A stretch of DNA of 38,912 bases from IMG/VR virus record IMGVR_UViG_2740892107_000002. One strand, written 5' to 3'. Shown one piece after another: positions 1-37,682 of the stretch. Each line of letters starts with the position of its first letter. Positions within the stretch are counted from its first letter, which is position 1. The translations under genes were made by a program, and so were the position numbers. Under the pieces are notes generated by a model. The model was not told the origin of the DNA. It saw nothing but the letters and a program-made list of their open reading frames with translations, and made no database searches. This stretch comes from a virus. Taxonomy: Duplodnaviria; Heunggongvirae; Uroviricota; Caudoviricetes.

Positions 1-1543
<1,543 letters not shown>

Positions 1544-1597
1544 TAAAAATACTCCCTTTTGAGTGGTTAAAGTACTGAGATAATGTGGGGAGGATTT

Positions 1598-1623
1598 GAG
1601 AGATAAACGTTGGTTTGGGGGAA
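1598..1623. other. gix/hix-like invertase crossover site 1 (approximate 26 bp)
   Basis: On the minus strand TTCCCCCAAACC-AA-CGTTTATCTCTC: 12-bp half sites around a 2-bp AA core, similar to hix/gix architecture; lies at the 5' edge of a fibre C-terminal cassette. Confidence 0.6.
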
Positions 1624-2043
1624 GGCTCGGCGCTGCCCGTTGGTGTACCTGTTCCGTGGCCCACTGCCACACCGCCAGCAGGCTGGTTAAAGTGCGACGG
1701 GCGCGCCTTTACAAAAGAACAATATCCTGTTCTGGCCAGAGTCTACCCGACCCTCCGTCTTCCCGATTTGCGCGGTGAGTTTATCCGTGGATGGGACGAC
1801 GGGCGAAAAGTGGATACAGGGCGCGATCTGCTTTCACGGCAGGATGGTACAAGTTTTTCTCATTACGCAGGTAATTTTGACATTGGGTCTGGTCATTCAA
1901 TCAATAACTATGACCAAATCCTTGACAACCAACCTGGATTCTCCCGTTTTTCATTTGCAGGTCCTTCGCGAGGCGATGGGGTTAATTATGTGACCATTCG
2001 TCCCCGTAACATTGCGTTTAATTACATCGTAAGGGCGGCATAG
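1615..2043 (+). CDS. alternative tail-fibre C-terminal cassette C (promoterless, silent orientation)
   Basis: Translation GEGSALPVGVPVPWPTATPPAGWLKCDGRAFTKEQYPVLARVYPTLRLPDLRGEFIRGWDDGRKVDTGR... and C-terminal RPRNIAFNYIVRAA parallel the C-terminus of the expressed fibre; frame is open from the crossover site; no own RBS or ATG expected. Confidence 0.7.
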   Translation: MGEGSALPVGVPVPWPTATPPAGWLKCDGRAFTKEQYPVLARVYPTLRLPDLRGEFIRGWDDGRKVDTGRDLLSRQDGTSFSHYAGNFDIGSGHSINNYDQILDNQPGFSRFSFAGPSRGDGVNYVTIRPRNIAFNYIVRAA

Positions 2044-6312: not shown

Positions 6313-6650
6313 AGCAGCTCCTGAGTCCGGGTCTGTCCGTCTGAGCCTTTCCAGCTCACCCGGAGCGTAAGATGTTCGCCGTCGACGGCGGGTTTAACTG
6401 ACATAAGCTGGCAGCGGGGCTCCCAGCGCCGGATGGCATCGACGGATTCGCGCACCACATGCGGAATGGCCCGGTCTACAGGCCAGTCGATATAAAGATG
6501 CAGATTGCTGCCGAACTCCGGGCGATGCGGGTCGCTGCCGCGGGGAGTCCGCAGGATAATTTGAATCGCCTGCCGGATATCATCCAGCCCCCGGACAATT
6601 TCGCCGGGAGCCTGCAGGGTCGGTTGCCAGAATACTGAGGTTGTTTTCAT
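6303..6650 (-). CDS. baseplate protein W-like (gp25/GPW lysozyme-like fold; Mu gp46)
   Basis: 115 aa; position after spike V; motif ...DPHRPEFGSNLH... consistent with the GPW/gp25 family. Confidence 0.7.
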   Translation of the reverse strand: MKTTSVFWQPTLQAPGEIVRGLDDIRQAIQIILRTPRGSDPHRPEFGSNLHLYIDWPVDRAIPHVVRESVDAIRRWEPRCQLMSVKPAVDGEHLTLRVSWKGSDGQTRTQELLWR

Positions 6651-6704
6651 GGGGGCAGTATTGCCCCCGTGCGGGAACGCTGATATTAAAGGCGTTTAAA
6701 AAGC

Positions 6705-8655: not shown

Positions 8656-9536
8656 ACACTCCTCGTCAGTATTCTGGCGGCCATTGCACTTAATTCCGGA
8701 GACATGCGGTTGAATGCTGTGCCGGCGGCGTTAAGCTGCCCGGAAACGGTATCCAGAGCACCTGCAATATTTCTTTTGTCCACACCACTCAGCGCAGACT
8801 GTGCCTGCTGTACATACGTGGCTGCTTCGCTGGCTGTTCTGGCCAGACTGATGGCATCGGGCATGGATTCAGAGAGTGCGTTAAACGCCGGAACACTTTT
8901 CCCCAGAGCCCCGGAGATATTACCCAGTCCGCTCATCAGCCCCGGCACACGGGTCAGTGCGACAACGGGGTTATCCTTCATTTTCTGTGTCACCCGAACG
9001 GCGCTGATAGTGGTCTGGAGTACAGACTGCGCCTGTTTCGCATAGTTGACGCCGTTGCGGATGAACTGCGCCACCCCTGAAGGTGAAGGTATGGCACCGG
9101 AGACCGCCCCGACACCCGGGAGCTTCGTGCGTATTGCCGGTGGTTGCAGAGGATTTTTCGGGTCACCGGTGTATTCCCGGAGAGACACGGTGGCACTGAC
9201 AGCCAGCACGTTGCCGGTACTGTCAGTCTGCTCGCTGGTTGCAGTCACATCGGTAATCACGAACCAGCCGCGATAGTCACCGTTGCCGAAGACCAGCGCC
9301 AGTGCCTGATGGGCTTTCATGGCTGTTCGCAGTCTCGCCAGCTCCACATCGGGTACACAATAATGCTGATGGAAAACCAGAGTTATCTGGATTTCGTCCA
9401 GCCTGTCGCCGACGAACTGCAGGCCAGGCTTACCCCCGATGCGGGCATGCTCCGCATAATCGACGCCGAACGTGGCCTCGAAGCCGTCCCAGTAGGTAAT
9501 CAGCTCAAACTCAATATCACCCAGTACGGCAAACAT
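8652..9536 (-). CDS. tail protein, Mu gpP (DNA circularisation N-domain) / P2 gpU-like
   Basis: 294 aa immediately downstream of the tape measure; N-terminal MFAVLGDIEFEL...GKPGLQFVGDRLDEIQITL pattern; family call from memory only. Confidence 0.55.
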   Translation of the reverse strand: MFAVLGDIEFELITYWDGFEATFGVDYAEHARIGGKPGLQFVGDRLDEIQITLVFHQHYCVPDVELARLRTAMKAHQALALVFGNGDYRGWFVITDVTATSEQTDSTGNVLAVSATVSLREYTGDPKNPLQPPAIRTKLPGVGAVSGAIPSPSGVAQFIRNGVNYAKQAQSVLQTTISAVRVTQKMKDNPVVALTRVPGLMSGLGNISGALGKSVPAFNALSESMPDAISLARTASEAATYVQQAQSALSGVDKRNIAGALDTVSGQLNAAGTAFNRMSPELSAMAARILTRSV

Positions 9537-12719: not shown

Positions 12720-12794
12720 GATTGTGCTCCTGTGTAAGTTCAGGGCAGTATGTCGGGAGAAGCGCGTGACGGATATTAAAGGAGATTAAGAAGA

Positions 12795-12810
12795 AGGGGC
12801 CGGAGCCCCT
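12795..12810 (-). terminator. GC hairpin (GGGGC-loop-GCCCC) followed by T-rich tract on the late strand
   Basis: Minus strand AGGGGCTCCGGCCCCT then TCTTCTTAATCT; could act as an attenuator within the tail operon. Confidence 0.3.
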
Positions 12811-12816
12811 GTGATG

Positions 12817-13065
12817 TCAGCAAGTGCGAAACCCCTTGCAGTTACGCAGGAAAGCGATGAGAAGCGTCTTTCCCTCAGATTTGCCGGTGCCGGAGAACCA
12901 GTGGTCGGGAGGCTCCCATGCTTCAATCAAATCCGCCAGTTTGCGGGCCTTTGAACGTGTGCAGTCAATCGGGTCATTGGTTTTACGGGTATTAAAAAGG
13001 GTTTCCACCCCCCGGAATATCAAGGAGGGTAAACCACGTACCATTTGACATGCCCAGTGCCGCAC
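12817..13065 (-). CDS. hypothetical small protein (GTG start), low confidence
   Basis: 82-aa ORF in the late-gene orientation between tube and chaperone; no recognisable family and no clear RBS. Confidence 0.25.
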   Translation of the reverse strand: MRHWACQMVRGLPSLIFRGVETLFNTRKTNDPIDCTRSKARKLADLIEAWEPPDHWFSGTGKSEGKTLLIAFLRNCKGFRTC

Positions 13066-17518: not shown

Positions 17519-18634
17519 TTACAGGCAGCGTGCGACAGCAGCCTCATAGCTGATGCCTTCTTTTTTGGACAGGGCCACTGCTTTCTGATGCAGGGCCAGA
17601 CGCTCAGGATCGGCTTCCGCAAACTCTGCCACATCCACCTTCACCGTGTCGCCGACACGCTCTTTTGTGGCCTGTTCGGCGAAATTCATCACCGGCTCCC
17701 CGTCGGAGAGCAATGAACGAAAGGCGGTGGCCAGCGGTGTGCGGCTTTCCCCCTCAGCAAACTCCACCGGCTTGTCGCCACCGGCGACGGCATCCAGCAG
17801 GGCAACCACCACGGAGGAGGCGCGGGGAGCCAGACGGCCCTCTGCGACCAGTTTTTCTGCAAAGGCCACATTGTCCTTATGCAGTTGCTCCTGTCTGACC
17901 TGTGCATCACGCGCATCGCGATCAGCAGCCTGCTGCTTCAGGCGGCGGTTCTCCTCCTGAAGGGCTTCAATCTCTTCTTTTGTCATCGATGATTCCTCGT
18001 TACTTGCGGAAGACGGCACCTGGCCTGTCTCACTGAATTGCGCACCTGCTGCATCCTGCGACGGTGTGTCGCGGTACGCCTCTTCGCGCAGATTGTTGAG
18101 CTGCCATTCCGGCAGGACTTTTTCTGCTTCGTCCAGACTGAAGCGGGCGATCAGAAAATCGCGCAGCTTTCCCCACAGGGAGGCATTCGTGATGGCCTGC
18201 CAGTCGGCGAACTCCACCACACCTTCTTCCTGCTCACTGAAGGACACCTGTTTCAGCCCCTTGACGGAAGGTGGCTGTGCCCCGAGAAAGCCCACATGGC
18301 GCAGGTAGAGCACGCCGGGCTTCGGATTGGACGGTGAATCCGGGAGGTAGAAAGAGGCGGACACTTTTTTGAATCGTCCGTCGGTGACCATCTCAGCAAA
18401 CTGCGGGTCCAGCTGGGCAGGCTCTGCCATCAGATCGACGCCGCTGAGCGACAGGGCTTTCACCCAGCCCCACGCCGGGTCTTCCGTTCTGGGATGACCA
18501 ATCACGAGTGGTGCTTCATGGACGGACGGGTCATAGGCTTTCACGCAGGCGGCAAGATCGTCTGGCGTGAACGGCAGTTTTTTGCCGTGCATATCGGTAT
18601 GAGTACCGGCTTTAAAAATGTGAATGGCTGACAT
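17519..18634 (-). CDS. head maturation protease / scaffold (Mu I-like)
   Basis: 371 aa; N-terminal domain plus Glu/Ala/Gln-rich coiled-coil C-terminal half typical of Mu I/Z. Confidence 0.75.
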   Translation of the reverse strand: MSAIHIFKAGTHTDMHGKKLPFTPDDLAACVKAYDPSVHEAPLVIGHPRTEDPAWGWVKALSLSGVDLMAEPAQLDPQFAEMVTDGRFKKVSASFYLPDSPSNPKPGVLYLRHVGFLGAQPPSVKGLKQVSFSEQEEGVVEFADWQAITNASLWGKLRDFLIARFSLDEAEKVLPEWQLNNLREEAYRDTPSQDAAGAQFSETGQVPSSASNEESSMTKEEIEALQEENRRLKQQAADRDARDAQVRQEQLHKDNVAFAEKLVAEGRLAPRASSVVVALLDAVAGGDKPVEFAEGESRTPLATAFRSLLSDGEPVMNFAEQATKERVGDTVKVDVAEFAEADPERLALHQKAVALSKKEGISYEAAVARCL

Positions 18635-18652
18635 TTTGCTGTCCCGCGTTAT

Positions 18653-18708
18653 GTTGTCGGAGACAGTTTGTGAGAAATGCAGGCCCGGCGATTTTAATCT
18701 GCTTTAGA
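18653..18708 (-). promoter_or_regulatory. candidate late promoter (PI-like): TAAAAT -10 with conserved downstream CTGTCTCC box
   Basis: 213-bp gap upstream of the protease gene; minus-strand TTAAAATCG-N-CTGTCTCC with the same 24-nt spacing as the element upstream of the lysis operon. Confidence 0.5.
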
Positions 18709-18848
18709 AAACATCAGGGGAGAAGGACAGGGAAAGCAATACGGTGAACCGGAGGCGGTTATAAAACAGAGGCTGTAAAGCCTTTATAAAGGTAATACAG
18801 CCCCTCATTCGCTGGCAATGATAAATCACCCGCCTGAAGAGAGAAAAC

Positions 18849-19307
18849 TCAGCGACGGGCCGCTGATTCAAGATGGCGGACAATGGTATCGAGGATGGGG
18901 ATTACCACTTCAGGCTGTAGTTCTCCATCCCCCGTCACCGGCAGGAACGGGCGGGCCGGAAGTTCAACAGACTCATTACGCCCCGTTTTACCCCCGAACT
19001 GGTGAATGGCACCGTAAACAACGTTGGTCCCCACAACAGCCTGCCGGTCGTCATGGTCGGTTGATACTGACCCCATCAGACGCCCGGTATCCTGCAGTGT
19101 CTGCCCGTCACGCTCTTCCGCTGCCAGCGAGGGCATCCACCCCGGACGCCCCTCATCAAGAAAGTTAAACTGTGTTTCCGCCAGCAGGGTTCCGGCAATT
19201 TTGCGCATCGCGGGCTCCAGGTCTGTGGCAGCAAGATCCAGCGCACGGAGGCTCCGGCGCAGGGATTTATCGTTAATGGTGATACTGACCAGGTTATCGG
19301 AAGCCAT
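18849..19307 (-). CDS. virion morphogenesis protein (Mu G-like)
   Basis: 152 aa, position after the F-like gene. Confidence 0.65.
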   Translation of the reverse strand: MASDNLVSITINDKSLRRSLRALDLAATDLEPAMRKIAGTLLAETQFNFLDEGRPGWMPSLAAEERDGQTLQDTGRLMGSVSTDHDDRQAVVGTNVVYGAIHQFGGKTGRNESVELPARPFLPVTGDGELQPEVVIPILDTIVRHLESAARR

Positions 19308-25755: not shown

Positions 25756-26106
25756 TTAAAGCCCCATCGCAACAGCCAGGCAGACCGCTGCAACAATCAG
25801 TGCACGGCGGATTAACGCAGCAGAAAACACCAGGTGAAGGCCGGTCTGTACCGGGAAACGCCCTTCAGCCATCAGCCTGTCGTCATGTTTCAGGTACTGA
25901 CCGGGACGGGCTTTGGGGAAGAGCGAACGGTCAAGCCAGTAACCCAGCACTGCTGCCAGCGTGATGAGTGCCAGCTTGTAGATCACAACAGGCAGCTGCT
26001 GTGGTGAGACCAGAGCGATGGTGCCCAGCAACAGCACTGAGGTCAGCAGCCAGCCGCTGAGGCGAGGTTTTTTAACAGGGGGAATGAATTTTTTCAGTTT
26101 TTTCAT
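25756..26106 (-). CDS. holin-like membrane protein
   Basis: MKKLKKF... with several predicted TM segments; AAGGAG 6 nt upstream of ATG 26106; first gene of the lysis cassette. Confidence 0.6.
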   Translation of the reverse strand: MKKLKKFIPPVKKPRLSGWLLTSVLLLGTIALVSPQQLPVVIYKLALITLAAVLGYWLDRSLFPKARPGQYLKHDDRLMAEGRFPVQTGLHLVFSAALIRRALIVAAVCLAVAMGL

Positions 26107-26119
26107 GTGTGTCTCCTTA

Positions 26120-26175
26120 TCTGGTGGAGACAGCATCACAAATACAGGGCGCGAAGGATTTTAAAGCGCGTTAAG
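26120..26175 (-). promoter_or_regulatory. candidate late promoter (Plys-like): TAAAAT -10 with conserved downstream CTGTCTCC box
   Basis: Minus-strand TTTAAAATCC-N-CTGTCTCC-N7-AAGGAG-ATG; same architecture and spacing as the element at 18653..18708; poor -35 suggests activator dependence. Confidence 0.5.
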
Positions 26176-26236
26176 AGAGCCGGGGATACGGGATGTGCAG
26201 GATAAACGATGAATTATTCACAGAGGAGAATACGAT

Positions 26237-26965
26237 ATGACGCAGACACTGAATCCGGTCATCACTGTCACCGTGTCCGGTCCTGTGGGCAGCGGTAAAA
26301 GTTACGTACTGGCGCGAATAGAGGAAGTGGTGAAACAGGAATTCGGAAACAGCGTCATTGTCGACGCCGCAGACGTGGACGGTGAGCGCCGTATGAGTGG
26401 GGATGATCTGAGCACATGGCAGAAACCACGGGCTGGCACAGTGATCAGGCTGGAGGAATACACGGGACAGGGCCTGTTGTCATACGGCGAGGAGCGTATC
26501 TGTCGGACGAATGAGCTGCTGGATGTTATATGCCCCACGGGCCGGCAACCCTGGATACTGCCCGATGCACTGCATGCCACCATTGCGGCACTGATGACAG
26601 TTTACGATCAGGAGCTGCTCATGAAGGAGTTACGTAAACTCACTGGTCAGTCAACAGAATGTTGTTCGTCCCCGAAGTACGGCAAACAGGAACACATCCC
26701 GATTAACCAGCCTCCCCGGTTCTTCGACGAATACCTTCTGACACCGGAAAATAAAGCTGAGCATGAAGAGATCAAAGCGGCGTTGTTCCGGGAAATCAGG
26801 AAGATTGCTGAAATGCAACTGGAGGGCGGGCTGGACAGAGTGATGGCGAGAGGAGAATGGGCATCGCTGTTTGAAAGAGTTTCCCCGGAATTACTTCCCC
26901 TCGCACTGGCTATCGGGATTATGCAGACAGCGGATAAACCTCACTTACGTTCATTAAACACGTAA
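26237..26965 (+). CDS. hypothetical protein with N-terminal P-loop (Walker A-like GPVGSGKS) motif; accessory gene
   Basis: 242 aa; ATG with GAGGAG upstream; opposite orientation to the flanking late genes; no family recognised. Confidence 0.6.
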   Translation: MTQTLNPVITVTVSGPVGSGKSYVLARIEEVVKQEFGNSVIVDAADVDGERRMSGDDLSTWQKPRAGTVIRLEEYTGQGLLSYGEERICRTNELLDVICPTGRQPWILPDALHATIAALMTVYDQELLMKELRKLTGQSTECCSSPKYGKQEHIPINQPPRFFDEYLLTPENKAEHEEIKAALFREIRKIAEMQLEGGLDRVMARGEWASLFERVSPELLPLALAIGIMQTADKPHLRSLNT

Positions 26966-27345
26966 CGCATAATCCGGGATACGCATTCAGCGATGACTGC
27001 ATTTTCACCGGTTTTTACTGCATCCAGAAGTGACTCTTTAAATGGTACGGGCCGGGGCTGCAGAAAGGTCGGCATGGCATTGAGCAGACAGAGCGTTTTT
27101 TCCGTGAGGACGACATCAGCCGCTCCCACAGCCAGCAACTGAGAGTAACGAATATAGCTGTTATCCCGAAGCCATATCAGCGTATCAATAAAACACCGGC
27201 ACTTTTTCTGGTCGTGATCAACCTGGTCCGGGATATCGAAAAAACCAGAATAAATCAAAACCTGAGGTGCCGGATGCGTGTTCAGTAATCGGCAGAATAT
27301 TTTGCCGGTGAGTACATAAAAATCATCATTTAAGGAGTGCATCAT
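26941..27345 (-). CDS. hypothetical protein (accessory, lower GC)
   Basis: 134 aa; ATG 27345 overlaps the divergent 71-aa ORF start by 2 nt; 3' end overlaps the P-loop gene convergently. Confidence 0.4.
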   Translation of the reverse strand: MMHSLNDDFYVLTGKIFCRLLNTHPAPQVLIYSGFFDIPDQVDHDQKKCRCFIDTLIWLRDNSYIRYSQLLAVGAADVVLTEKTLCLLNAMPTFLQPRPVPFKESLLDAVKTGENAVIAECVSRIMRYVFNERK

Positions 27346-27643: not shown

Positions 27644-27749
27644 TCATCGCCCCACAGGAATGCGCTGTGAGCCGACCAAGGTTCAGTCAGTCTCGCGAGA
27701 CCTGACCAGACTGCCATATTTTTTAATAATTGTAAAAGGCTTGCAGATT

Positions 27750-28514
27750 ATGAAAATGCAGACATTACCCATCGTGCCGTGGATTGGTGGCAAACGCCGC
27801 CTTGCAAAACACATTCTGCCGCTGTTTCCGGCGCATGAATGTTATGTGGAGCCGTTTTGTGGGGCAGCAGCGCTCTATTTTCTTAAGACACCCGGCAAGA
27901 TCGAAGTCATCAATGATATCAACGGTGAACTGGTGAATCTGTACCGGGTGGTAAAGCATCACCTGGAAGAATTTGTCCGCCAGTTCAAATGGGCGCTGGT
28001 CAGCCGTCAGATCTACAAATGGCTGCAGATCACCCCGGAAGAAACACTGACGGATATCCAGCGTGCGGCACGGTTCTACTACCTTCAGAAGCAGGCGTTT
28101 GGCGGCAAGGTGGCAGAGCACAGCTTCGGTACCTCCACCACATCCCCGCCACGCTTCAACCTGCTACGTATTGAAGAAGAACTGTCAGCGGCACACCTGC
28201 GGCTTTCCAGAACAGTCATAGAACACATGGACTGGCAACAGTGCATTGAGCGTTATGATCGTCCGCACACGCTGTTCTACTGCGACCCACCGTACCTGGG
28301 TACGGAAGGCTATGGTGTGGATTTTCCTGAAGGGAACTACTCGCGGCTGGCAGAGCTGGCCCGGTGCATCAGAGGAAAAATGATAATTTCGGTGAACGAC
28401 ATCCCGCAGATGCGCGAGGTGTTCACTGGACTGAACATACAGACAGTGAATATCAACTACAGTCTGGCGGGTAAACCCACGCCGCGCCGTGAACTGCTAA
28501 TCTGCAACTTCTGA
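27750..28514 (+). CDS. DNA N6-adenine methyltransferase (Dam family), orphan
   Basis: EPFCGAAALYF (motif I-like) and CDPPYLG (DPPY catalytic motif); ATG 27750 chosen over the upstream extension; no adjacent restriction endonuclease candidate. Confidence 0.8.
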   Translation: MKMQTLPIVPWIGGKRRLAKHILPLFPAHECYVEPFCGAAALYFLKTPGKIEVINDINGELVNLYRVVKHHLEEFVRQFKWALVSRQIYKWLQITPEETLTDIQRAARFYYLQKQAFGGKVAEHSFGTSTTSPPRFNLLRIEEELSAAHLRLSRTVIEHMDWQQCIERYDRPHTLFYCDPPYLGTEGYGVDFPEGNYSRLAELARCIRGKMIISVNDIPQMREVFTGLNIQTVNINYSLAGKPTPRRELLICNF

Positions 28515-28630: not shown

Positions 28631-28987
28631 TCAGCCTGCGATTTTTCCTGGTTTTGGCTGAGTATAGAATCGCCCAATCTCAAGAAATGAGCGTTGTTGG
28701 TCTGGTGTCATGTCGTCAAAAGTATCTATTAGTTTTTGTTTTTCTGGGGAAATTTGATTCTGGTTTCTAGTCATACCATCTGTGCTCATTCCAGTGAGCA
28801 ACCAATTTACATCAACATTAAACTCTTGATGCATCTTTAACAGAAACTCCCCTCCAGGCATCGCCTTTCCATTTTCAATCTGACTGATACCACCATTAGA
28901 AATACCTAAACGAGCTGCAAATTCTCTCTGGTTCAACCCTGCTTTCTTCCTCACAGAAATAACGCGCTCTCCTATATCTTTGCTCAT
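28631..28987 (-). CDS. prophage repressor (XRE-family HTH, Mu c analogue)
   Basis: N-terminal HTH (LNQREFAARLGISNGGISQIENGK); divergent from the early operon; low-GC gene; operator half-site overlaps its start codon. Confidence 0.75.
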   Translation of the reverse strand: MSKDIGERVISVRKKAGLNQREFAARLGISNGGISQIENGKAMPGGEFLLKMHQEFNVDVNWLLTGMSTDGMTRNQNQISPEKQKLIDTFDDMTPDQQRSFLEIGRFYTQPKPGKIAG

Positions 28988-36871: not shown

Positions 36872-37321
36872 ATGCAGAAAAAACGCCTGATACAGCTTAT
36901 CCATATTGCCCGTAATGAACTGGGTATGGATGAAGACACCTACCGCCAGATGTTACAGGGGCTGACCGGTAAAGCCTCAACCAAAGGAATGGATACCACA
37001 CAACTAAACTGCGTGCTGGAATCCATGAAAAAGAAAGGCTTTCGCGTTAAACCAGCCAGAAAAGCCAGCTCCGGTTTACCGCTGGATAACCATCCGCAGT
37101 CCAGGAAAATTCGTGCGCTATGGCTTGAAATGGCTGCTGCCGGCATTGTTCGTGACCGTTCAGAAAATGCATTAGCGAGGTGGATCAAGCGGGAAACGGG
37201 CATCAGCGCCCTGCGCTGGCTCAGTACTGAACAGGCAAGCAGTGTTATTGAGAAACTGAAGAAGTGGCAGCGCAGAGCTGCGGGAGTCAAACATGAGCGA
37301 CCTGAATCAGTTTCGAAGTAA
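36872..37321 (+). CDS. GemA-like protein (Mu gp16 family)
   Basis: 149 aa; N-terminal KKRLIQLIHIARNELGMDEDTYRQMLQ pattern; positioned directly before mor as in Mu. Confidence 0.65.
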   Translation: MQKKRLIQLIHIARNELGMDEDTYRQMLQGLTGKASTKGMDTTQLNCVLESMKKKGFRVKPARKASSGLPLDNHPQSRKIRALWLEMAAAGIVRDRSENALARWIKRETGISALRWLSTEQASSVIEKLKKWQRRAAGVKHERPESVSK

Positions 37322-37682
37322 GGGGCCGGAACTCCTGGTGGAACTGGCACAGCATACCTCTGAGACCGTTCGCGAGATTATTGATATTGAGCCCGAAGTT
37401 GCCGACCAGATTGGTCAGGCCGTCGCGAACCGAATGATGCAGGTCTGGGGCGGGCAAAACGTTTATTTCCCGATGGGCATGGTATGGAAGGTCAGTCAGC
37501 GCGACCGGGAAATCTTCAGGGAGTTTAACGGACGCAACCACCACGAACTGGCCCGCAAATTTGGTGTTTCGCTTCAGTGGGTCTACAGCGTGGTTAAGCG
37601 GGTAAGAAAAGAAGAACTGGATCGGATGCAGGGCAAGCTATTTGCTGATGAACCCGATGCAGATACGGAGAAAAAAGAGTAA
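37293..37682 (+). CDS. Mor/C-family transcriptional activator
   Basis: 129 aa; C-terminal HTH region (FNGRNHHELARKFGVSLQWVYSVVKRVRK) resembles Mu Mor; last gene of the early operon. Confidence 0.8.
   Translation: MSDLNQFRSKGPELLVELAQHTSETVREIIDIEPEVADQIGQAVANRMMQVWGGQNVYFPMGMVWKVSQRDREIFREFNGRNHHELARKFGVSLQWVYSVVKRVRKEELDRMQGKLFADEPDADTEKKE

Follow-up and report, generated by a model that had tools for sequence, protein, structure and literature searches.

The late genes of phage Mu are served by Plys, PI, PP and Pmom, four promoters that precede lys, I, P and mom, respectively. Mu promoters that depend on the activators Mor or C possess a -10 element and lack a -35 element, and their activator site is a 16-bp dyad, centred at -43.5, in which a 6-bp G/C-rich spacer parts two 5-bp inverted repeats (PMC4390567, PMC2582627). 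Activation further requires the bases immediately downstream of the dyad (PMC2582627), and the recognition sequence of C has been given as TTAT-N5-6-ATAA (PMC12867686). The element considered here lies on the minus strand at positions 18,653 to 18,708 of a 38,912-nucleotide stretch of viral DNA (IMG/VR record IMGVR_UViG_2740892107_000002; "the window" in what follows), the content of which is a BcepMu-type (genus Bcepmuvirus) transposable prophage. It is situated in the gap between a gene resembling Mu G and the head maturation protease/scaffold gene that corresponds to Mu I. Based on sequence comparison, and with a probability that we put at roughly 75%, the element is understood as P_I, the head-operon late promoter of this prophage, activated by a Mor/C-family protein and overlaid by a fold-back layer, that is, an RNA hairpin over the ribosome-binding site of the downstream gene. 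It appears to be one of four Mor/C-type late promoters in the window.

The resemblance to Mu concerns the architecture more than the recognition sequence. As in Mu, a 16-bp imperfect dyad adjoins the -35 position, a recognizable -10 is present with no -35, the bases directly downstream of the dyad are conserved, the promoters stand ahead of the lysis, head (I) and tail/baseplate blocks, and the phage itself encodes a Mor/C-family activator, here as the last gene of the early operon on the plus strand. Unlike in Mu, the half-sites are of TTAA type (YTTAA-N6-TTAAW), and none of the four dyads matches the Mu C consensus TTAT-N5-6-ATAA. The distance from dyad to -10 is 22 bp, compared to 23 bp as read in the Mu Plys, PI and Pmom sequences. 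A single activator gene stands in place of the Mor-then-C cascade, with no second Mor/C homologue among the open reading frames (ORFs) of the window, and there are four structural/lysis promoters plus, possibly, a divergent one sharing the lysis dyad. Given their TTAA-type half-sites, these elements would not be Mu C sites; they rather suggest a Mor/C-type promoter recognized by another member of the family.

The initial annotation had described the element as the second copy of a two-box motif also found before the lysis genes. The pattern TTAAAATC-N23-CTGTCTCC does occur exactly, and with identical spacing, on the minus strand at 18659-18697 and 26126-26164; with up to three mismatches allowed, it gives 3 matches against 0.23 expected, a count that none of 100 shuffles reached, and CTGTCTCC is found at just two places in the window. 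Both copies are therefore real, yet the repetition is fourfold, not twofold. The pattern TTAAWATC-N19-nAnnCTG has four exact matches, all on the minus strand and all intergenic (6656-6689, 12746-12779, 18664-18697 and 26131-26164), and with one mismatch allowed the window contains 5 matches compared to 0.20 expected. The octamer TTAAWATC by itself is found five times, and the four occurrences that are intergenic and on the late strand are each followed by CTG after exactly 23 nt. The copies precede the genes for holin (start at 26106), protease/scaffold (18634), tail chaperone (12719) and baseplate wedge protein (6650), and they align as YTTAA-N6-TTAAW, ATC, 19 free bases, nAnnCT and G-YCYCC. 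A relaxed search for TTAAM-N5-TTAAA (up to one mismatch) returned 10 matches against 1.9 expected, not equalled in 100 shuffles. Extra matches at 1385-1400, inside the invertase coding sequence, and at 12982 and 27722, inside ORFs, have no -10 at the right distance and were taken as chance.

Both boxes of the initial annotation are real features that required another delimitation. The first (TTAAAATC, also written TTAAAATCG) is the proximal half-site plus adjacent bases, hence only part of the 16-bp dyad, the distal half-site of which (TCTAA, 18704-18708) is found at the very edge of the annotated interval. The second, CTGTCTCC, combines the last two bases of the predicted -10 hexamer (CT) with six mostly pyrimidine bases of the discriminator, and it also supplies the 5' arm of the hairpin by which RNA would cover the ribosome-binding site. 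At the -35 position the sequence AATCGC agrees with the -35 hexamer at 0 of 6 bases, and a consensus scan for sigma-70-type -35/-10 pairs found none on the late strand in either gap. The hexamers at the fixed -10 position are CAAACT (head), GATGCT (lysis), CATACT (tail) and AATACT (baseplate). The A at position 2 and the T at position 6 never vary in any promoter class; in a sigma-70 -10 element, too, these are the two positions that stay constant. All four copies share the rule that the 7th base after the hexamer is the first purine following the pyrimidine run, and from this geometry transcription is predicted to start at 18658, 26125, 12740 and 6650. As the dyad is 22 bp from the hexamer, its centre would fall at about -42.5; reckoned from the hexamer, it is at -42.5 if transcription starts at the 7th base and at -43.5 if it starts at the 8th.

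Other candidate signals in the gap were considered and rejected. CATTTC/TATTTG in the spacer, taken as a -10, reads CTTTTC or TAATGC in relatives, with loss of the A at -11, and the head and lysis copies place it at offsets 2 nt apart. CATAAC/GATAAG downstream of CTGTCTCC is unconserved (CGTAAC, CATCAC). A dyad TAACCG-N4-CGGTT (~18745-18760), tried as an activator site, belongs to a variable part of the gap and is absent in relatives with a protease ~74% identical.

Conservation was assessed in relatives collected as 56 loci via the protease, 80 via the terminase and 80 via the baseplate J protein, plus 7 genome loci. Among 47 relatives, comprising the terminase-anchored loci spanning 21.5 kb, 39 have a single match to the pattern at each of the lysis, head and tail positions and none elsewhere on that strand, and the exceptions involve only a degenerate distal half-site. 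At these three positions the 19-bp spacer is invariant in length while its sequence drifts; the baseplate promoter shows the same pattern of conservation, though with a few N+1 spacer variants. Fixed spacing together with free spacer sequence is to be expected of two DNA elements contacted by protein and not of an RNA leader. In relatives with a protease ~74% identical, TTTTCTAAAGCAGATTAAAA is invariant. Hexamers at the fixed position in relatives include CAGACT, GACACT, GAAACT, CATGCT, AAAACT and GACAAT. Distant relatives and BcepMu carry TTAAC/TAAAG-N5/6-TTAAA at the position of the dyad; in Salmonella diarizonae and metagenomic contigs the TTAAC/TTAAA pairs flank spacers made only of G or only of C (GGGGG, CCCCC). 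BcepMu has the same four promoters in different sequences, before gp21, gp32, gp41 and gp49, and the layout at gp21 is GCTAA-AGCCGA-TTAAA-AGA-N19-CAAGAT. The earlier proposal of a late promoter in this gap, sister to that before the lysis genes, thus finds support in the layout, the activator gene, the conservation and the architecture of BcepMu.

The promoter sequence has a second property, for which the closest described systems are found outside Mu. For IS10, a "fold-back inhibition" of read-through transcripts was reportedly described by Davis, Simons and Kleckner in 1985. In phage T4, the late promoters of the genes e, soc, 49 and I-TevI lie in a hairpin by which the ribosome-binding site is sequestered (review PMC3014915). 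At all four promoters in the window the -10/discriminator is complementary to the downstream Shine-Dalgarno sequence or start codon. The arms at the tail promoter are TGC-CCTG and CAGGAGCA; the baseplate hairpin, GGGGGCA-ATAC-TGCCCCC, holds the hexamer partly in its loop and its 3' arm touches the ATG. Predicted folding energies of read-through RNA compared to RNA begun at the predicted +1 are -14.2 and -0.5 kcal/mol (lysis), -17.1 and -5.9 kcal/mol (head), -12.1 and -1.4 kcal/mol (tail) and -17.8 and 0 kcal/mol (baseplate). A search of Rfam returned no family at gathering score in the whole window and none at E <= 1 in 18550-18900.

The pairing is conserved with covariation. Among 21 distinct head-class sequences, pairing extends to 99.3% of cells, compared to 37-52% in slid-partner controls, and two pairs have changed on both sides, as in CTGTCTC/GAGACAG and CTGCCTC/GAGGCAG, with U.G intermediates. 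The core of the lysis stem is paired in 32 of 32 sequences, and its extension into the hexamer covaries (TGCTG/CAGCA compared to AACTG/CAGTT, exchanging T-A for A-T and G-C for A-T). In the baseplate class, GGGGGCA/TGCCCCC alternates with AGGGGCA/TGCCCCT. The arm variants observed are those permitted in sense-strand RNA. BcepMu has functionally equivalent hairpins in other sequences, with z = -3.9, -2.7 and -3.4 for three of the four; an outer stem, CCTACCCGTA/TACGGGAGG, reaches onto the holin Shine-Dalgarno sequence.

Since the 5' arm lies upstream of where transcription is predicted to begin, a mechanism of the T4 type is the simplest reading: a long RNA would hide the ribosome-binding site and the late RNA would lack the arm. 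The likeness to the T4 genes and IS10 is that the Shine-Dalgarno sequence or the AUG pairs with sequence upstream of the late start (here predicted), so that long transcripts are predicted to be untranslatable and promoter-initiated ones open; as with T4, a lysis gene is again concerned in the first case. The differences from T4 are that the promoter here would use sigma-70 and a Mor-type activator, not gp55/gp33, that the hairpin is found at all four late promoters and not at scattered genes, and that two variants have the -10 hexamer as the loop of the hairpin, with a predicted leaderless mRNA. Genes on the same strand do lie upstream: the G-like gene before the head promoter and an ORF at 26941-27345 before the holin gene. 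The latter is a possible source of read-through RNA, because its transcript would head towards the holin gene; in BcepMu, the repressor operon is oriented towards the holin gene. This 134-aa ORF belongs to a real phage family (phrog_2266, 2.6e-44), is unannotated in the record of Escherichia phage PhiKM, and converges on the plus-strand ORF 26237-26965 with an overlap of 25 nt. In Mu itself, Plys (L227, ~1420-1490) reads TAGACT-GCCATCA ... TGATGGC across the lys start codons, a 7-bp complementarity in the same layout (z = -0.5, weak), and PI (L227, ~9000-9060) reads CAAACT-GA-CTGCTCA ... TGAGCAG before the Shine-Dalgarno sequence (z = -1.7, weak). Given these weak fold statistics, the same fold-back in Mu is kept as a lead only.

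The baseplate promoter offers independent support for the assignment of the -10. Counted from the end of the hexamer, the A of the baseplate ATG comes exactly 7th in 41 of 42 distinct sequences; the count is the same in BcepMu gp49. The gene has no Shine-Dalgarno sequence and a stable hairpin abuts its ATG, the A of which (6650) coincides with the predicted +1. Fixed distance and missing Shine-Dalgarno sequence would be explained by a leaderless mRNA, not by a longer leader, and leaderless mRNA is therefore predicted for the baseplate wedge gene. A leaderless layout is likewise predicted for BcepMu gp49, and the BcepMu protease gene is probably leaderless as well. The annotated start of BcepMu gp32 (ATGATG) falls inside its predicted -10, and an ATG 12 nt downstream aligns better.

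To account for these observations, we propose that the single Mor/C-family activator of the phage would bind the dyad at 18693-18708 as a dimer or higher oligomer and, placed at about -42.5, would substitute for the absent -35 contact. Sigma-70 RNA polymerase could thereby use the weak -10 CAAACT (18665-18670) and start transcription at about G 18658, and the three sister promoters of the same geometry would serve the lysis, tail and baseplate blocks. RNA entering from upstream would fold back and hide the ribosome-binding site; RNA begun at the late promoter, lacking the 5' arm, would be translatable.

Several points weigh against this proposal. The -10 hexamers are weak, with 3-4 of 6 matches. 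The half-sites differ from the Mu C consensus, and binding by the activator is consequently argued by analogy. Hairpin z-scores against upstream-arm shuffles are only -1.6 to -2.8, a modest range that is explained by the ability of a G-rich Shine-Dalgarno sequence to pair with any C-rich discriminator, and the variation in the 5' arm, mostly C/U, retains G.U pairs, yet would also be expected without selection. Covariation reaching into the -10 hexamer requires that RNA spanning the promoter exists, which also fits a start further upstream. The likely terminator upstream of P_I would limit the very read-through against which the hairpin supposedly guards. Start-site, footprint or expression data for this phage family were not found in the searchable literature.

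One alternative, which we consider unlikely, interprets the element mainly as an RNA leader. Transcription would start upstream, either from TAAAAT in the "half-site" serving as -10 or by read-through from the lysis/packaging operon, and the hairpin would be a translational operator; nAnnCT would then not be a -10, there would be no promoter at ~18658, and the CTGTCTCC/GGGACAG hairpin would be part of the mature late mRNA. The covariation of the sense strand into the proposed hexamer speaks for it, since RNA over this DNA exists and matters, and TAAAAT and TAATAT within TTAAWATC do resemble -10 hexamers. As a -10, however, TAAAAT was rejected, because the essential final T is lost in most head-promoter orthologues, which read mostly TAAAAG or TAACAG. 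A 5' untranslated region would tolerate insertions and deletions, yet the 19-bp spacer is fixed in length with free sequence; A at position 2 of the hexamer is invariant though unpaired in the hairpins; and a dyad centre at about -33 would misfit the Mor/C geometry. At the baseplate gene the hairpin abuts an ATG without a Shine-Dalgarno sequence, which makes it implausible that a longer RNA is translated; the fixed 7-nt distance, by contrast, is explained if transcription starts exactly at the baseplate A.

Less probable still is the view that the inverted repeats at the -10/start are DNA operators for a dimeric repressor, the shared boxes being that protein's site, or else cruciform signals. 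Perfect inverted repeats in some relatives, such as CTGTCTCTATTA-ACG-TAATAGAGACAG, are indeed operator-like, and several promoters carry the -10 hexamer within the loop. No single protein could read all the arms, however, since these differ from one to the next of a phage's four promoters; the sense-strand variants comprise U-A, C-G and U.G, and C-A, which DNA symmetry or the opposite strand would permit, is never seen; and loops of 9-27 nt are unsuited to cruciform extrusion. The lowest credence of all goes to an ordinary constitutive sigma-70 promoter, or a chance likeness of two intergenic regions. Intergenic DNA is AT-richer and contains -10-like strings, yet there is no -35, the consensus scan is empty on this strand, and fourfold repetition, fixed spacing and conservation as far as the Burkholderia phage BcepMu go far beyond chance. 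The Mor/C-activated late promoter with its fold-back layer is thus retained as the best explanation, and the features that it comprises are collected in Table 1 together with their neighbours.

Table 1. Positions of the predicted head promoter P_I, its sister promoters and associated features in the 38,912-nucleotide window.
Feature	Position	Strand	Basis
Predicted Mor/C-type activator site, 16-bp imperfect dyad TCTAA-AGCAGA-TTAAA	18693..18708	-	YTTAA-N6-TTAAW layout at the other three promoters
Conserved ATC directly downstream of dyad (AGC or AGA in relatives)	18690..18692	-	four-copy alignment, relatives
19-bp spacer, free sequence, fixed length	18671..18689	-	comparison of 47 relatives
Predicted -10 hexamer CAAACT	18665..18670	-	fixed position relative to dyad
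C-rich discriminator GTCTCC, resembling an anti-Shine-Dalgarno sequence	18659..18664	-	four-copy alignment
Predicted transcription start, G	18658	-	geometry: 7th base after hexamer, first purine following pyrimidine run
Predicted 24-nt leader with Shine-Dalgarno GGGA; +1 G is its first base, ATG at 18634	18635..18658	-	
Head hairpin CTGTCTC / GGGACAG, 14-nt loop; pairs -10/discriminator with Shine-Dalgarno region	18639..18666	-	folding, covariation
Sister promoter before holin gene: dyad CTTAA-CGCGCT-TTAAA 26160-26175, hexamer GATGCT 26132-26137, predicted +1 A 26125	26125..26175	-	
Holin promoter hairpin TGTCTCC / GGAGACA, reaching Shine-Dalgarno sequence	at the 26125..26175 promoter	-	folding, covariation
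Sister promoter before tail chaperone/tape-measure block: dyad CTTAA-TCTCCT-TTAAT 12775-12790, hexamer CATACT 12747-12752, predicted +1 A 12740	12740..12790	-	
Sister promoter before baseplate wedge gene: dyad TTTAA-ACGCCT-TTAAT 6685-6700, hexamer AATACT 6657-6662	6650..6700	-	
Likely terminator hairpin AGGGGCTGTA-TTA-CCTT-TATA-AAGG-CTT-TACAGCCTCT	18768..18805	-	-20 kcal/mol, z = -5.03
U-rich tail GTTTTAT after this hairpin	18761..18767	-	
Perfect 12-bp palindrome CCTTTATAAAGG	18781..18792	-	part of conserved motif
Head maturation protease/scaffold gene (equivalent of Mu I / BcepMu gp32-33), head block gene 1	17519..18634	-	phrog_976, 7e-163
Mu G-like virion morphogenesis gene, final gene of preceding late block	18849..19307	-	Pfam Phage_tail_S PF05069, 4.9e-23
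Sole Mor/C-family activator gene, presumed trans-factor	37293..37682	+	Pfam Mor PF08765, 1.3e-43; phrog_532 "late transcriptional activator"

The gap between the G-like and protease/scaffold genes, measured as 214 nt and not the 213 bp given previously, appears to contain a terminator ahead of the promoter. The initial annotation had placed a weak hairpin there (AGGCT-TTAC-AGCCT followed by CTGTTTTATA) as a possible separator of two late transcription units. That hairpin exists at 18783-18770, with 5 pairs, and passes a simple terminator scan. Its stem is not conserved, being lost in Klebsiella-type relatives, and the pairing of AGGCT with AGCCT is a sub-pairing of a stronger hairpin at 18805-18768. 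The latter has a G+C-rich stem directly followed by UGUUUUAU, a U-tract, in the manner of a terminator, and from its predicted fold it is likely to terminate transcription after the G-like gene. The separation is hence plausible for this hairpin and not for the 5-bp stem originally named. In relative L003 the large stem is kept, with a G.U changed to G-C, but there is no U-tract; Klebsiella-type relatives have instead an 11-13-bp G+C hairpin and then CCUUUAU; and BcepMu, at the same place, has CCCGTAAAG...CTTTACGGG and then TTTGGTT. A terminator between the two units thus remains plausible, in a form that varies among relatives. A further hairpin of this kind was noted directly upstream of the tail promoter, at 12791-12812 on the minus strand, where a small G+C stem (GGGGC-TCCG-GCCCC) is followed by TTCTTCTT, the T-run overlapping the distal half-site of that promoter; at the equivalent place BcepMu has a textbook terminator, GGCCCGCTTCGGCGGGCCTTTTTT.

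Within the same gap, the motif CCTTTATAAAGG(C)TTTAC (18776-18792, minus strand) is kept in all enterobacterial relatives while its flanks differ, and BcepMu (L226, ~18735-18755) has TTTTATAAAGGCTTTAC as its counterpart. In Mu, the gap between G and I, at the centre of the genome, holds the strong gyrase site (SGS). The two have in common the same intergenic gap near the prophage centre and a strongly conserved non-coding motif. They differ in that sequence similarity is not evident and the motif here is also the apex of the terminator-like hairpin. The palindrome motif might serve as an analogue of the gyrase site or bind some protein, or it might be nothing more than the apex of the terminator.

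The window is 99% identical to Escherichia phage PhiKM over the 4 kb tested and ~82% identical to Klebsiella phage KP12, and its protease/scaffold protein is 49% identical to BcepMu gp32. The late genes run along the minus strand from the holin gene through to the tail fibres, and the gene product downstream of the tail-block promoter is a phrog_166 tail protein. A Gin/Hin-type DNA invertase gene (971-1672, minus strand) is found at the tail-fibre end of the prophage, and host-range switching by inversion is for this reason likely. A cI/Cro-type helix-turn-helix repressor gene at 28631-28987 on the minus strand (HTH_3, 4.6e-15) is unannotated in the near-identical PhiKM record.

A possible fifth late promoter is suggested by the lysis dyad, which is nearly palindromic. 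Read on the plus strand (26160-26237), it is followed by AGA plus 19 nt and then CAGGAT (26198-26203), a position at which relatives have CAGAAT or CATGAT. Downstream of CAGGAT are the ORF 26237-26965 (phrog_3787), a 71-aa ORF and a Dam-type methylase (27660-28514). Judged from this arrangement, there may be a divergent late promoter that shares the lysis activator site. If this holds true, the methylase operon would be a late function, as is mom in Mu.

Lastly, the analysis bears on late gene regulation in a group of phages whose prophages are common among E. coli, Klebsiella, Salmonella and Burkholderia. No description of the late promoters of BcepMu-like phages was found in the searchable literature, the coverage of which did not include the BcepMu genome paper (Summer et al. 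2004); a literature search on RdgB/pnlA gave only unrelated papers. The late-promoter consensus for the BcepMu group (YTTAA-N6-TTAAW, 22 bp, nAnnCT) is open to test and suggests the recognition sequence of a Mor/C-family member other than those of Mu, which will be useful as structures of Mor/C with polymerase appear. The late region is split into four transcription units with predicted starts, to the benefit of annotation and prophage engineering. Most deserving of experiment are the placing of promoters in hairpins and the leaderless mRNA predicted for the baseplate gene. Tentatively, and at somewhat less than even odds, we suggest that BcepMu-type phages, and perhaps Mu, keep all their late operons under a double lock, in which an activator-dependent promoter is placed inside a hairpin that hides the ribosome-binding site, such that only transcripts from the late promoter are translated. 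The baseplate gene and BcepMu gene I would embody the extreme version of it, where the -10 hexamer forms the loop of the hairpin and the mRNA is leaderless. If true, an entire late regulon would have promoter and translation systematically coupled, which would bear comparison with the way IS elements are protected from outside transcription. Should both fold-back and leaderless mRNA be confirmed, the silencing of lysis-gene read-through known from T4 would have been reached independently, and regulon-wide, in transposable phages.

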